The notes: generated by a model not told the origin, from the letters alone. Numbered from the stretch's first letter, positions 7,098 through 12,469 are shown. The stretch: 64,000 nt of DNA from an uncultured Chloroflexia bacterium (GCA_963813335.1 CAWEYL010000003.1:128001-192000); one strand, 5' to 3'. Numbers and translations: made by a program.

Positions 7098-7283
7098 TCA
7101 GCCGACCTGCGTTCGGGCGTTCTTCTTGCGCTTCGCTTCCTTGCGCTTGCGCTTCACGGACGGCTTCTCGTAGTGCTCGCGTCGGCGAGCCTCCGCGAGG
7201 ATGCCGCTCTGCTGGATCTTCTTGTTGAAGCGGCGCAGGGCGCTTTCGAACGTCTCGTTCTCTCCCACTCGGACTTCAGCCAA
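7098..7283 (-). CDS. rpsU: 30S ribosomal protein bS21
   Basis: [27 protein letters not shown]; TTG start after GGAGGTG. Confidence 0.96.
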
Positions 7284-7408
7284 TCGGTGTTCACCTCCCC
7301 AGGCCTGGAGTTCGTGGCTCTCGCGCGGGCTCGTGGCCAGCCGGCCCGACGCGTGCTCAGCGGTCCCCCGCCGAAGCCGCCGGAGTGTAGCCGAGCCCCC
7401 GGGGTCGG

Positions 7409-7720
7409 TCAAACGGTCGGAAGGTGCTGTCCGAGCACGAAGATCCAGTACGCGTCGAGCGCCGCGACCACCGCCCAGAACCCGACGATGAGCGTCGGAC
7501 GACGCAGGAAGCACTTGCTCCACGACACGCCGAGCGAGATCGAGCGCAGATACAGCCCGATCGCCACGATCGCGACGACCAGCACGAAGACCGCGGGCGT
7601 CACCAGCCACGCGATCAGACCGATCGTCCCCATGCGGCAGAACGTGAAGGCCAGCCGCTCGTACTTCTCCGGGCGGGTGAGCGGCGGGCGGGCGTAGCTG
7701 GTCGGTCCGACGGTGGTCAT
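7409..7720 (-). CDS. Small membrane protein (about 3 TM), last gene of the Lgt-like/radical SAM operon
   Basis: 103-aa hydrophobic ORF; ATGA overlap with the radical SAM stop. Confidence 0.75.
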
Positions 7721-9285
7721 GCGGGTGCCTCGCTCGAGAGCGGCCGCAGGTCATCGAGGGCGATGAGCTCGCGAGCCGGGACCATGCCCGCCGACGTGTG
7801 CCGTCGCAGGCCGCCGAAGATCTGTCGGGCGCAGAACGGGACCCGGACAGGGTTCGCCTCGCCATCGGTCGAGCCGACGTGCACGCAGCACTGCTGCAGG
7901 CGCTCGATGTTCAGGGTCCAGGGGTCCATGAACGTCTTGATCGAGACCCGTTTGACCCGCAGCGCGATGTCGGTCATCGGGGCCTGGCCGCGGTCGGTGA
8001 TCCAGCGGCCGAGGCTCTTGATGAAGCCCGAGACGCCGAGGTCGCAGACCTCGCAGATGTCGAGCAGGTAGTCGATGACCTCCTTGCGGCTGACCATCGC
8101 CGTCTCCGACAGCAGGCCCGTGAGCGACTCCCAGAGCGCGTCGTCCGGGGCCAGCCGGTTCCCGAACACCGCCATCCGCTCGGCCAGCCGGTCGCGGCCG
8201 ATCAACTGCACGATCGAGCGGTGCGAGCCGTCGTCGCCGCGGACGAAGTAGGTCAACGACGAGCAGTCGGGATGGCTGCACGGGAGCGCGATGAAGTCGT
8301 CCGGCCCGACGCGGCCGGCGGTCTGCTCGCCCAGCCGGCGGATGGTCCCGGTCGTCGTCGAGCGGTCCATCGGGTCGATGGCGTGCGCCCGGCCGGTCGT
8401 GAACATGGGCTGGATCGCGACGCCGGCGACGTAGTCGGTGGCGAAGGCGTGCTCGACGACCGCGCCCACCTCGTGGTCGTTCACCCCCTTGGCGACCGCC
8501 ATCGCGAGCGTGGTGAAGATCCGCTCGCCGGTCAGGCGCTCGATGGCGAGCCGCTTCACCTCGCGCAGGTCCTCGCCGCGGTGGTACAGGTGCGTCGCGA
8601 GCTCGAAGCCGTCGAACTGGAGGTACACCTCGACGCGGTCGCGGAGGCTGGCGAGCTCGGCGAGGAAGCGGTCGTCGCGGGCGACGCGGATCCCGTTGGT
8701 GTTGAGCACGACGCGGGTCACGGGCGATCTGGTCGCCTCCCGGATGATCTCGACGATCTCGGGATGGACGGTCGGCTCGCCGCCGGACAGCATCAGGGCG
8801 TCGATCCGCCCGCCCTCCCGCTCGATCGCGGTGTCGAGCGAGCGGACGATGTGGGGCAGCCGCGCGTGGCGATTGATCCCGGGCCCGCTGCCGGCGAAGC
8901 ACGTCGGGCAGTGGAGGTTGCAGTTCTCCGTGACGTCGATCAGCAGGATGCAGCTGTGCTGCGTCTGGAGGTCGCCCAGGCCGTCCATGTAGCCCATCGG
9001 GATCGGGCGCAGGTTACCGGGCGTATCCGGGGTGATCTCACGGGTAGGGATGCGCCAGTGCTGGAGCTCCTCCCAGAGGTCGCGGTCCTCCTCGTAGAGG
9101 CTCACCACCTCGCCGTGCCCGCGGCGGCAGATCCGGCGCAGGTAGACGGCGCCGTCCATCGCCACGAGGTTGCCCTGGAGGATGTCCGTCTCGTAGTCGA
9201 TCTCGCGGTCGGGATCCTCGCTGAAGCAGCGCCCGCAGATGGTCAGGACCATCCGCAGCGGGAGATAGGGTCGGAGGGCGAGCAT
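7717..9285 (-). CDS. Radical SAM enzyme, Tes/GDGT-MAS (MJ0619)-like family
   Basis: N-terminal CGRC...CRRGH metal site; CNLHCPTC radical SAM motif; [14 protein letters not shown] and YLQFDGF; C-terminal FMD...CCVH...PFC. Confidence 0.85.
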
Positions 9286-9290
9286 CGGAT

Positions 9291-9844
9291 CTAGATCGAG
9301 CCGGCGACCGGCAGGCACAGCCCGCTGATCCCGAGCAGGACGATGACCGGCACGACCAGGAGGAGTCGTGAGCGCGCGGCCGGGGCGCGCGGGATCGGGA
9401 TGCAGGGTGCGCATGACCAGGAACGAGCAGAGCAGCCCGAAGAGCAGCACGACCGTAAGGATCACCTGCGCGAACGGGCCGTAGCCGTATCGTCGACGTG
9501 CGGAGGAGGAACGGGATCGCGAAGAGGAGCCAGACGATGCCATAGGCGCCGAGGACGATCCGCCTCGCGGTCGATCGGACCGGGGCGATCGCCTCGTCCT
9601 GTCGCTGACGGGAATTGGCGAGCGCGAGAGCCTCGCGCACCTCCTCGGCGGTGAACCCGCCGGCGATCGCCGACCGCTCGATCGCGGCATCCGTGAACCC
9701 CGGCCGGATCGCCTGGATCCAGGTGACCAGCTGCTCCACGCGCGTCCCCGTCTGCCACGGCCCGCCGGGCGTGATCGGCGGTGGATCGGCGCTTCCCGGG
9801 TCGGCCGGGCCTTGGGCGCCTGCTGGCGTGCCGTCGTCGGTCAT
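9291..9844 (-). pseudogene. Membrane protein (about 3 TM) interrupted by two apparent +1 indels (near 9490 and 9365)
   Basis: Hydrophobic segments continue across three frames (IVWLLFAIPFLL / YGYGPFAQVILTVVLL / LLVVPVIVLLGISGLC*). Span is 554 nt = 552+2. ATGA overlap with the lgt-like gene. Confidence 0.65.
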
Positions 9845-10665
9845 GACAGTCCCTCCATCCGTACGGGGATCGGCGTGGGCGGCGCGGGGATGCGGTAGGC
9901 GTCGCGGCGGACCTGCCGGGCGAAATGCAGCAGGAGCAGGCCGACCATCGGGATGAGGACCCACTGGGGTCCGCTGAGACCGAGCGCCTGGGGCTCGTTG
10001 CCTCGGACGAACTCGACGAGGAATCGGAAGACCCCGGCCGCGAGCAGGTAGAGCTTCACGGCGTCGCCCGGGACCACGACCCGGTCCCGGTAGCGGAGGA
10101 TCACCGCGATGGCGACCAGGTTGAAGAGGATCTCGTACAGCATCGAGGGATGCATCGGGACATCGCAGCCGGGACAGCGGGCGAACGCCGCGGCGGCCGC
10201 CGGGCTGACCGAGATGCCCCACGGCAGGTCGGTCGGCGTGCCCAGCGGCAGCTCGGACAGGAAGCAGCCGATCCGCCCGATGACGGTCGCGACGGGGATC
10301 GCCAGGAGATAGCAGTCGCCGGTCGAGCGGGTGTAGCCGAAGGCCCGCTTCGAGAGCACGATCGCGATGTAGCCGCCGGCGATCGCGCCCAGGATGCTCT
10401 TGCCGCTGTGCTCGATCACCTCGCTGAACGGCTGGGTCGCGAGCGCGTCGTAGACCTCGAGGTGCTCCCAGGACGTGATCACCCGGGCGCCGATCGCGCC
10501 GCCGAGGACCGCCGCGAGCGAGATCCACACGATCGGTCCGCCGAGCCAGTCCCGCCGCCGCAGCTCCCGGTAGTAGATCGCGAGCCCGACCGTCAGCGCC
10601 AGCACCGTGAACGCGTCGTGCGTCATCACGGTCAGCGGGCCGAGCTGGAACAGGACGGGATGCAT
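9841..10665 (-). CDS. Prolipoprotein diacylglyceryl transferase (Lgt)-family paralogue
   Basis: MHPVLFQLGP, GGAIGAR, GRIGCFL, LPWGI, HPSMLYE and FRFLVEFVR. The canonical SFHGG motif reads KSILGA. Confidence 0.85.
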   Translation of the reverse strand: MHPVLFQLGPLTVMTHDAFTVLALTVGLAIYYRELRRRDWLGGPIVWISLAAVLGGAIGARVITSWEHLEVYDALATQPFSEVIEHSGKSILGAIAGGYIAIVLSKRAFGYTRSTGDCYLLAIPVATVIGRIGCFLSELPLGTPTDLPWGISVSPAAAAAFARCPGCDVPMHPSMLYEILFNLVAIAVILRYRDRVVVPGDAVKLYLLAAGVFRFLVEFVRGNEPQALGLSGPQWVLIPMVGLLLLHFARQVRRDAYRIPAPPTPIPVRMEGLS

Positions 10666-10810
10666 CGGCGCTATCCAGTAGCCGGCATGACGACGGATCG
10701 GTCGCGGGCTCGACCGATGGACGCCGCTCCGGTCCGCACGTTACACGCACCGGCAAGGCGTCACATCTCGGCTGTTCGGGCCCGCGCCCGCGCGCTACCC
10801 TCGTTCCGCG

Positions 10811-12469
10811 ATGTCCACCCTGCTCGACCTTCTCGATCACGCGGTCACCCGCTATGGCGAGCGCGGCGCGCTCGCGCTGCGGCTTGACGACGGCTCGACG
10901 ACCGAGTGGACCTACCGCGAGCTCGCCCGGCGGGCGCGGATCGCCGCGTGGCGGCTCCGGGCGATGGACCTGGAGCCTGGCGACCGGATCCTGACCTGGT
11001 CGCCGTCGACGCCCGAGCTCCCGGCCGCCTACTACGGGGCGATGGCCGCGCGGCTGGTCCTCGTGCCGCTCGACCTGCGGATGTCGCCCGCCGCGGTGGA
11101 AGGGATCGTCGCGGCGTCGGGGGCCCGGCACCTCATCCTGGGCACGGGACGCGACGCGCCTGACCCGCGCGAGGCCGGCCTCGACCATTTCCCGACCACG
11201 ACCGTCGAGGCGCTCTGCGCCGAGCCGGCGCCCCACGACCCGGCCTTCCCGCCGGACTGGGAGTCGCGCCAGGCCGCATGGGCGCGCCCGGCCGCGGACG
11301 AGGTCTTCGAGCTCGTCTTCACGTCCGGCACCACCGGCACCCCCAAGGGCGTGACGTTGACCCACGACAACGTGGTCGCCTCGATCGAGTCGTTCCACCG
11401 GATCGTCCCGCCCATGGAGCACCGCCTGGTGTCGCTGCTCCCGCTCTCGCACCTGCTCGAGCAGGCCGTGGGGCTCTACTACGCGCTGGATGTCGGGGCC
11501 GACATCCTCTACGTGCGCAGCCGGAACCCGCGCGTCATCTTCGATGCGCTGCGCGACCAGCGCGTGACCTCGATGGTGGTGGTCCCGCAGGTCCTCGACC
11601 TGTTCTGGAGCGCCATCGAGCGCGAGGTCGCCAAGCGCGGCCGCACGGCGGCCTTCGACCGGCTCCGCTGGATCGCGCGCCACCTGCCGATGCGGTTGCG
11701 CCCGCGGCTGTTCGGTGCCATCCACGGGCAGCTCGGCGGGCATTTCCGCCTGTTCCTCTCGTCCGGGGCGTTCCTGCCGCCGTCGCTGCAGCAGGCGTGG
11801 GAGGACATCGGCGTCACGGTCCTGCAGGGCTACGGCGCGACCGAGACCGGGACCGGGACGTGCACGACGCTCGCCGACCACGGGCCGGGGACCGTCGGGC
11901 GCGCGCCCGCGGGGATCGAGATGCGCCTCGCACCCGACGGGGAGATCCAGTTCCGCGGCCGGACCGTGTTCGACGGCTATTGGCAGAACCCCGAGGCCAC
12001 CACGGCCGCGTTCACCGACGACGGCTGGTATCGCACCGGGGACGTCGGCCACCTCGACCCGGACGGCCGGCTCATCCTGTCGGGCCGGAGCCGCGACATG
12101 ATCGTGCTGCCGAACGGGTTCAACGTGTATCCGGAGGACATCGAGAACGCCCTGCGCATCGCCGGGATCCGCGACGCGATCGCGGTCGAGACGAGACCCG
12201 GCCGGATCGAGGCGATCGTCCTGACCGGCAGCGCCAGCCCGCTGCCGGGCGCCGCAAGCGCGTCCGGCGGGGTGCACCCCGACCACCCTGCCGAGATCCG
12301 GGCAAGCATCGACGCGGCGGTGAAGGCGGCGAACGCGACGCTCGGCCCGAACCAGCGGATCGTGGGCTGGCGGCTCTGGCCGGAGGACGACTTCCCGCGA
12401 ACGCACACCCTCAAGATCAAGCGCGGACCGATCCAGGCCTGGGCCGCGGTCGAGGGCGAGCGCGCCTGA
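10811..12469 (+). CDS. AMP-dependent ligase, long-chain acyl-CoA synthetase-like
   Basis: FTSGTTGTPKGV, QGYGATE and GWYRTGD motifs. Confidence 0.88.
   Translation: MSTLLDLLDHAVTRYGERGALALRLDDGSTTEWTYRELARRARIAAWRLRAMDLEPGDRILTWSPSTPELPAAYYGAMAARLVLVPLDLRMSPAAVEGIVAASGARHLILGTGRDAPDPREAGLDHFPTTTVEALCAEPAPHDPAFPPDWESRQAAWARPAADEVFELVFTSGTTGTPKGVTLTHDNVVASIESFHRIVPPMEHRLVSLLPLSHLLEQAVGLYYALDVGADILYVRSRNPRVIFDALRDQRVTSMVVVPQVLDLFWSAIEREVAKRGRTAAFDRLRWIARHLPMRLRPRLFGAIHGQLGGHFRLFLSSGAFLPPSLQQAWEDIGVTVLQGYGATETGTGTCTTLADHGPGTVGRAPAGIEMRLAPDGEIQFRGRTVFDGYWQNPEATTAAFTDDGWYRTGDVGHLDPDGRLILSGRSRDMIVLPNGFNVYPEDIENALRIAGIRDAIAVETRPGRIEAIVLTGSASPLPGAASASGGVHPDHPAEIRASIDAAVKAANATLGPNQRIVGWRLWPEDDFPRTHTLKIKRGPIQAWAAVEGERA

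Follow-up and report, generated by a model that had tools for sequence, protein, structure and literature searches.

The window analyzed here is a stretch of 64,000 nucleotides (nt) from an uncultured Chloroflexia bacterium (GCA_963813335.1, CAWEYL010000003.1:128001-192000), a soil member of the Chloroflexota. It carries an accessory cassette of four co-directional minus-strand genes, recognized from the list of open reading frames (ORFs) and from third-position G + C: an Lgt-family paralogue (LgtL), a variable membrane-protein gene (memB), an enzyme of the radical S-adenosylmethionine (SAM) type resembling Tes/GDGT-MAS, and a conserved membrane protein (small103). In archaea, Tes/GDGT-MAS performs the Csp3-Csp3 coupling of two lipid tails, and Lgt, the prolipoprotein diacylglyceryl transferase, is the enzyme that fixes lipids onto proteins. 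The cassette is a compact, conserved and portable module of two enzymes and two small partners, which brings together a private Lgt subfamily, an enzyme of GDGT-MAS fold with an altered cluster set and a partner bearing a built-in candidate substrate motif. Its genes are closely packed: ATGA start/stop overlaps at 9841-9844 (LgtL/memB) and 7717-7720 (radical SAM/small103) couple the members of each pair translationally, and the TAG stop codon of memB is followed by 5 nt (ATCCG) and then by the radical SAM ATG at 9285. This layout, including the divergent acyl-CoA ligase gene, had been given in a preliminary description made from the sequence alone and is all seen in the window; the observations of that description are confirmed in part, as its account of the memB reading frame and of the insertion site has to be revised.

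Judged from sequence comparison and a structural model, the radical SAM protein is a full-length member of the GDGT-MAS fold family and not an orthologue of Tes or TrsS, because it matches this fold over its full length but stays below both NCBIfam cut-offs. Pfam recognizes only the generic Radical_SAM domain (68.1 bits), and the best NCBIfam models are TrsS (NF045646, 218.2 bits for a cut-off of 490) and Tes (NF045702, 182.7 bits for a cut-off of 450). A phmmer search against solved structures returns GDGT-MAS (7TOL) as the sole strong match (E = 7.6e-36, residues 39-486 aligned to 39-491), identity to GDGT-MAS being 22%. The AlphaFold2 model, built from a 57-row alignment, has a predicted local distance difference test score (pLDDT) of 86 and a predicted template modelling score (pTM) of 0.87. 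With Foldseek it retrieves 7TOM at template modelling (TM) scores of 0.76/0.80 (E = 1.3e-36), over the full four-domain fold of rubredoxin domain, N-cluster domain, radical SAM core and C-cluster domain, and the next fold, SkfB, reaches 0.35. No SPASM or RRE-type peptide-binding domain was detected in the protein, and GDGT-MAS is the sole full-length structural match.

Fourteen cysteines are invariant among 119 sequences of the clade. C17, C20 and C53, with H57 (at least 90% conserved), form the rubredoxin-like Cys/Cys/Cys/His site; C122, C126 and C129 are the CX3CX2C ligands of the radical SAM cluster; and C466, C467 and C485 correspond to the C-terminal cluster region of MJ0619 (CC...C), so that three sets of ligands are shared with the archaeal enzyme. 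The remaining ones are C112, C336, C341, C411 and C414, among which 336, 341, 411 and 414 are extra with respect to GDGT-MAS; the CxxC formed by 411 and 414 in the window clade is also found in several other clades. The [Fe4S4]N cluster of MJ0619 is held by C73, C77, C80 and a His (PMC9433317). The corresponding motif, GCPxDCGLCPxHxQH, is kept in most bacterial relatives, but the window clade and its relatives at 42-56% identity have a Cys-free stretch instead, together with a 12-residue insert in the rubredoxin domain. Met439 and Tyr459 are reported as completely conserved in 1000 archaeal homologues, the M439A variant being still active (PMC9433317); their positions are occupied by Lys and Val in the window protein according to the alignment with 7TOL, in which chain numbering is native numbering plus 20. 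The tetraether-synthase likeness proposed from the sequence alone therefore holds as full-length structural and sequence homology to MJ0619/GDGT-MAS, and fails as orthology to Tes, given the score of 182.7 against 450 bits and the absence of the [Fe4S4]N cysteines, Met439 and Tyr459.

The Tes cut-off is reached by none of 80 full-length representatives drawn from the best 150. An unrooted tree of 56 rows, with bacterial sequences only, contains one branch with a Shimodaira-Hasegawa-like approximate likelihood ratio test (SH-aLRT) support of 97 that separates 20 rows from 36. The smaller side holds 15 LgtL-linked rows, one located at the edge of a contig, three lacking context, and L081. The larger side consists of 24 unlinked rows, the representatives resembling TrsS and Tes, and another linked pair (L101, L102). 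Although TrsS is the best-scoring NCBIfam model and belongs to the same superfamily, the window protein misses its cut-off, and the one true TrsS of the sample (P0238, 595 bits) falls on the other side of the tree. The single paper found to hold the name TrsS merely lists it, without a function.

LgtL is a member of the Pfam family LGT (116.2 bits for a cut-off of 24.9, model positions 1-235 of 240) with a seven-helix-type sequence alignable to E. coli Lgt (5AZB) and an HPSxLYE motif, but it misses both NCBIfam Lgt equivalogs (TIGR00544, 64.1 against 118.9 bits; NF000778, 74.3 against 334). Eleven residues are invariant among 68 sequences: R131, C134, E138, C164, C167, H172, Y177, E178, R214, E218 and R221. 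The phosphatidylglycerol (PG) head-group network described for Lgt comprises Arg143, Asn146, Ser198, Glu202, Tyr235, Arg239 and Arg246 (PMC8689077), and five of the seven are kept in LgtL, as the equivalents of Arg143, Ser198, Glu202, Arg239 and Arg246. The other two, both reported as essential in E. coli (PMC8689077), are replaced, Asn146 by Cys and Tyr235 by Ala, the latter in the sub-clade of the window. Unlike canonical Lgt, LgtL also has THD for the WYG (Tyr26) motif and an added CPxC before HPS. Replacement of Asn146 by Cys was considered as a sign of lost activity and rejected, Cys being common there in canonical-side Chloroflexota Lgts; His103 is not conserved in canonical Chloroflexota Lgts either. 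Neither change marks LgtL as inactive, since both occur on the canonical side.

A family tree places 23 radical-SAM-linked LgtLs apart from 10 canonical Lgts on one branch (SH-aLRT 99), in a clade distinct from the canonical Lgts of the same genomes. Twenty further Lgt-family genes, matching LgtL at E ≤ 1e-20, were then added, 19 from genomes with no Tes-like match and one (L174) from a second site in a cassette genome (G049); all 20 fall on the canonical side, the split becoming 23 against 30 (SH-aLRT 100), and none has a Tes-like neighbor. As the groups were defined by linkage, these quick IQ-TREE searches show clustering and not direction. Every sampled gene of the LgtL subfamily adjoins a Tes-like radical SAM gene, and a canonical Lgt is found elsewhere in all five of the more distant cassette genomes tested. 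The window's genome (G000) has LspA, and the cassette paralogue is the only Lgt-family gene found in it; the housekeeping Lgt is probably unassembled, because this genome (2.54 Mb in 7 contigs) is an estimated ~81% complete, and LgtL would be the sole Lgt if the gap were real. Many same-genus genomes also have, 10-30 kb away from their canonical Lgt, a third Lgt-family class (~55-80 Pfam bits) that is unrelated to the cassette (for example G021:C4:66924-67652 and G017:C1:214177-214905; L114 and L116).

The second gene, taken at first for one intact frame, is not a single open frame in the window, where third-position G + C and translation place +1 shifts near 9490-9493 and 9366-9369. It is read in one frame in six close relatives (L014, L016-L020), compared to which the window has two 1-nt insertions, and it is likewise shifted twice in the nearest relative, L013. 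These shifts may be sequencing or assembly errors or the real decay of a pseudogene; public contigs of runs X1-X4 leave 9289-9522 almost uncovered. No family in Pfam or NCBIfam corresponds to memB, and Pfam searches of MemB-type proteins and small103 at E up to 1 give sub-threshold noise only, a 15-bit PGF-CTERM match on L102 not being used. The protein consists of an N-terminal soluble part, three predicted helices and a C-terminal motif (...VPVIVLLGISGLCLPVAGSI), and it is hypervariable, with 25-45% or undetectable identity between loci.

The main new observation is a lipobox-like motif in this otherwise variable protein: in nearly every case, the ORF that stops where the radical SAM gene starts closes with a hydrophobic helix of Pro, about nine hydrophobic residues and Gly-x-Cys, after which 5-15 further residues follow. 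By scripted search, such a site was located between LgtL and the radical SAM gene in 71 of 75 loci (the misses are L037, L049, L084 and L092), and its density is 86 sites in 65,531 bp of this interval against 10 in 810,395 bp elsewhere in the same loci (1.31 against 0.012 per kb, about 100-fold enrichment). The same scan gives two matches elsewhere in the window's genome, ALGACSGP and IAGACSGTT, which have Ala at -1 and are regarded as signal peptides of ordinary lipoproteins. In 13 loci, memB-type genes stand two or three in tandem, and in 14 loci the motif Cys is followed by a domain of 135-169 amino acids, an arrangement that looks like a signal peptide, a lipobox and a mature protein. The intervening small proteins of the distant cassettes L093, L096, L101 and L102 also have a Cys at the end of the last helix. 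Because MemB would be N-in with three helices by the positive-inside rule, its motif Cys is predicted to lie at the outer leaflet, the side on which the active site of Lgt is located (PMC8689077). With a conserved short motif, a variable remainder and tandem copies, MemB behaves in its sequence like a substrate. The earlier suggestion that the Cys-bearing small membrane proteins could be acceptors gains real support in the case of memB, whose Gly-x-Cys is conserved at the outer end of the last helix.

The fourth protein, small103, has 728 homologues, all unnamed; no Pfam or NCBIfam family matches it, and the ESM Atlas holds unnamed clusters only. Cys28 and Cys70 are invariant in its alignments. 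One distant Lgt-linked group has an ArsP_1 'predicted permease' (PF03773) in its place (L096 7377-8276, L119 4679-5581, L120 9639-10538), and in L096 the permease start overlaps the radical SAM stop.

The linkage was surveyed at the best 80 of 242 relatives, from one-genome-per-species contigs. Of 68 loci in which 2.5 kb or more of upstream sequence is available, 67 have LgtL upstream in the same orientation, L081 being the exception; of 76 with 400 nt or more on the downstream side, 75 have small103 there, all but L084. This recurrence in informative orthologous loci is beyond chance. The linkage holds across radical SAM clades of 31-35% identity, and, among 49 loci with long flanks, 30 share the ligase/rpsU context of the window and 13 have neither gene. 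In the window's genome and 40 relatives, most same-genus genomes have a canonical Lgt of ~200 bits, and the 110-116-bit Lgt class occurs in exactly six (G000, G006, G014, G017, G019 and G021), the same six that harbor the orthologous radical SAM gene; the two genes are adjacent in five of these and on separate small contigs in G014. When 401 evenly drawn Chloroflexota genomes were screened, a Tes-like gene at E ≤ 1e-25 turned up in 49, a tally that includes the window's genome and G266 (flagged unpublished and used in no other result). In 15 of these 49, an LgtL-type gene is encoded on the same strand no more than 3 kb upstream, and in three more the two genes are on different contigs. Conservation of the Lgt linkage across genomes and divergent clades, and the co-occurrence of a small transmembrane gene, both set as checks in the preliminary description, are borne out.

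Tes-like genes without LgtL occur in a second, distinct setting of phospholipid type, as read from their neighbors. In the unlinked Chloroflexota clade, a class I SAM methyltransferase with weak CMAS similarity adjoins the radical SAM gene in five of seven scanned loci (L099, L105, L108, L110, L112), and a CDP-alcohol phosphatidyltransferase is nearby in three of the seven no-LgtL loci scanned (L097, L105, L112). As at least two contexts exist, one Lgt-linked and one linked to the methyltransferase and the CDP-alcohol transferase, Tes-like matches in Chloroflexota metagenome-assembled genomes (MAGs) should not be pooled as potential for brGDGTs (glycerol dialkyl glycerol tetraethers of the branched type).

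Table 1. Genes and sites of the cassette and its flanks (window coordinates)
Feature	Position	Strand	Evidence
LgtL, Lgt-family paralogue, 274 amino acids, cassette gene 1	9841-10665	-	Pfam LGT 116.2 bits; subfamily tree
memB, variable membrane-protein gene, two +1 frameshifts here	9291-9844	-	frame plot, translations, intact genes of relatives
Tes/GDGT-MAS-like radical SAM, 522 amino acids	7717-9285	-	Pfam, NCBIfam, phmmer, AlphaFold2 and Foldseek
small103, conserved membrane protein, 103 amino acids	7409-7720	-	alignments; 728 homologues
Acyl-CoA ligase (AMP-binding), divergent flanking backbone gene	10811-12469	+	Pfam AMP-binding 221 bits
rpsU (ribosomal protein S21), flanking backbone gene	7098-7290	-	translation; tblastn 95-98% in relatives
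Promoter-like site for rpsU, TTGACC-17-TACACT	7384-7412	-	sequence scan

Three cassette-free genomes of the same genus (L151-L153) have rpsU ~170-260 nt from the ligase gene, in an unchanged surrounding order of dnaJ, prmA, a membrane protein gene, HIT, orf204, ligase, rpsU, yqeY and pgpH. Because the ligase stays beside rpsU there, the cassette is a presence/absence block of ~3.4 kb between these two genes, and the insertion 'between HIT and rpsU' of the preliminary description is imprecise. The ligase, entertained as a pathway member, directly adjoins rpsU in these genomes and was rejected as a backbone gene. The spot between rpsU and the ligase seems to be variable: in L154 (5180-6953, G010) it holds FAD monooxygenase-like and MarR-like genes and no cassette. 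The cassette flanks show short, imperfect repeat matches only, with no mobile-element signature or mobile-element genes, and a terminator scan found none.

A role in making membrane-spanning lipids or brGDGTs has been suggested for the Tes homologues of bacteria (Zeng et al. 2022, PMC8941075), and a survey of Black Sea MAGs counts Chloroflexota among their carriers (111 of 684 MAGs; bioRxiv 10.1101/2024.06.25.600576). Such homologues, Chloroflexota included, are thus already in print as functionally untested candidates (PMC8941075, 10.1101/2024.06.25.600576, PMC13459092), which weakens the novelty first claimed; an experimentally shown function was not found in the available text of these three sources. 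The published homologues belong to the same superfamily as the window protein, but they are treated there as a radical SAM enzyme alone, the available text making no mention of an Lgt paralogue, of a lipobox-like partner or of the loss of the N-terminal cluster. No paper that connects Lgt to a Tes-like or radical SAM enzyme came up in a full-text literature search, although the supplementary trees and networks of the Tes papers may already show the clade. Joining of two fatty-acid tails has been shown for another bacterial radical SAM enzyme, Mss (Sahonero-Canavesi et al. 2022, PMC13159169), a different protein reported from organisms in which Tes homologues are absent; compared by its description, it is alike in the kind of chemistry proposed here. 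Nothing was found that ties the cassette to brGDGT sources or ether lipids, a relevance suggested at first. The window's host is a bacterium with ester-lipid genes, and its genome has no match to Pfam HGD-D, a proxy for the PlsA/Ger ether-lipid enzymes, a result that is uninformative as the Thermotoga control was also silent.

Taken together, these data favor, at a little under even weight, a reading of the operon as a dedicated lipidation system in which lipid tails are modified by the Tes-like enzyme. LgtL would bind a phosphatidylglycerol-type lipid at the outer leaflet and pass the diacylglyceryl group of this lipid on to MemB, at the Cys of the lipobox-like Gly-x-Cys that closes the last transmembrane helix. 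In this respect it would differ from canonical Lgt, since its candidate substrate is encoded in the same cassette and bears the Cys close to the C-terminus and not after an N-terminal signal peptide; whether MemB is the substrate of LgtL we regard as evenly balanced. The radical SAM enzyme would be cytoplasmic and would probably dock on the membrane through small103, the two-Cys protein encoded at its stop codon. It would abstract hydrogen from hydrocarbon tails and then join or otherwise modify them, whether in the donor lipid ahead of transfer or in the anchor once attached; that it acts on lipid tails is the better-founded part, and we think it somewhat more probable than not. GDGT-MAS itself acts on lipids with phosphoglycerol head groups, and its crystals contained bound phospholipids of bacterial origin (PMC9433317). 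The cassette would thereby yield a lipid anchor or lipopeptide with coupled tails, in macrocyclic or membrane-spanning form. More speculatively, and in our opinion unlikely to hold, this would be a new kind of lipidation, in which a dedicated Lgt paralogue reads an internal or C-terminal lipobox-like signal on co-encoded, fast-evolving substrates and a Tes-like radical SAM enzyme welds the attached or donor diacylglycerol tails into a macrocyclic or membrane-spanning anchor or a released, tail-crosslinked lipopeptide. The interpretation offered in the preliminary description survives in its homology to MJ0619, its Lgt linkage and the idea of memB as acceptor, and loses Tes orthology, the membership of the ligase and the link to brGDGTs.

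Several points weigh against a lipidation system of this kind. Without the [Fe4S4]N cysteines, Met439 and Tyr459, the radical SAM enzyme may carry out a different chemistry, and two residues reported as essential in E. coli are replaced in LgtL, Asn146 by Cys and Tyr235, within the sub-clade of the window, by Ala. The active site of LgtL faces outward and the radical SAM enzyme is cytoplasmic, placing the two steps in different compartments. The MemB motif departs from the canonical lipobox, [LVI][ASTVI][GAS]C (PMC12462473), in that position -2 is Gly and position -1 is often taken by a bulky residue (L, I, T, V, F). With frameshifts in the window and in its nearest relative L013, memB may be dispensable or decaying there, and the whole cassette is absent from most same-genus genomes, being present in 6 of 25. 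The data show gene content, families, fold, conserved linkage, a separate LgtL subfamily and the conserved motif, and from these the biochemical steps of the model are inferred.

The strongest alternative, which we hold to be somewhat unlikely yet deserving of serious attention, is a pathway for free lipids only, where membrane glycerolipids have their acyl tails coupled by the Tes-like enzyme, giving macrocyclic lipids or lipids of the diabolic-acid type, LgtL is a PG-binding partner or a head-group-processing enzyme, and MemB and small103 are scaffolds or regulators. The GDGT-MAS fold and the lipid context of its superfamily agree with it, as do the proposals made for bacterial Tes homologues (PMC8941075); moreover, both enzymes are intact in the window and in L013, where memB is broken, and L081 retains the radical SAM gene and small103 without LgtL. 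However, such a pathway leaves unexplained why a hypervariable protein should end its last helix with a lipobox-like Gly-x-Cys in 71 of 75 loci, and why memB occurs in tandem copies and, in 14 loci, with an extension resembling a mature domain after the Cys, and no role for Lgt besides protein lipidation is described in the available text of PMC8689077.

Modification of a peptide is improbable. The radical SAM enzyme would act on a Cys of MemB or small103, for instance by forming a thioether or a carbon-sulfur link between lipid tail and protein, with no joining of tails, and LgtL would supply or position the lipid. The invariant C28 and C70 of small103, the MemB motif and the precursor-like variability and tandem copies of memB fit such a scheme, and the mechanism reported for GDGT-MAS passes via a carbon-sulfur bond with the substrate (PMC9433317). 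The window clade has, in addition, lost one auxiliary cluster and carries the CxxC at 411/414, which several other clades have as well. Against this stand the negative search for a SPASM or RRE-type domain in the enzyme, its sole full-length structural match to a lipid enzyme, GDGT-MAS, and the predicted position of the MemB Cys at the outer leaflet, away from a cytoplasmic enzyme. That LgtL and the radical SAM gene are neighbors by descent only, as a syntenic accident or a decaying remnant, is very hard to credit: the accessory nature of the cassette (6 of 25 same-genus genomes), the frameshifted memB of the window and the lack of detected flanking repeats or mobile-element genes would suit it, but the linkage survives in at least two genomic contexts and spans clades of the radical SAM protein that share 31-35% identity, the linked LgtLs make up a subfamily of their own whose sampled members never occur away from a Tes-like gene, and the 4-nt start/stop overlaps are kept.

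Bacterial Tes homologues are widespread and repeatedly invoked as sources of the membrane-spanning lipids used in palaeoclimate proxies, and the cassette points to an undescribed pathway for a lipid or a lipid anchor. The LgtL subfamily is distinct from housekeeping Lgt and, if it has a private substrate, would widen the scope of lipoprotein-type modification. Were the new kind of lipidation true, it would give a first assigned function both to a bacterial Tes homologue and to an Lgt paralogue with a private substrate.

The window has a G + C content of 70-77% across its first 10 kb, and homologues of its genes are labelled Limnocylindria or Chloroflexota by their sources. Parts of the 64-kb stretch are contained in 20 public DNA sequencing runs from 16 studies, with no RNA run among the runs listed. 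At 8723-8728, within the coding sequence of the radical SAM enzyme, one public contig of run X1 has an inserted and a deleted nucleotide 5 nt from each other; the two compensate, and depth is low there.

Some further loci of the survey have unusual surroundings. L081 (4781-7307), from a MAG labelled Actinomycetes, has the radical SAM gene and a small103 homologue without LgtL, and SelD-like and SelA genes adjoin them. Both kinds of Tes-like gene are present in G260 (Limnocylindria), the Lgt-linked copy on C9 and the unlinked one on C6, in the same clade as L108 (L109, L128). At L084 (2416-4499), genes for a glycerol-3-phosphate dehydrogenase and a polyprenyl synthetase lie divergently upstream of a unit comprising a zinc-ribbon protein, LgtL and the radical SAM enzyme. 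Finally, a group II intron reverse transcriptase/maturase gene is located just upstream of the unlinked Tes-like gene of L112 (3524-5481).

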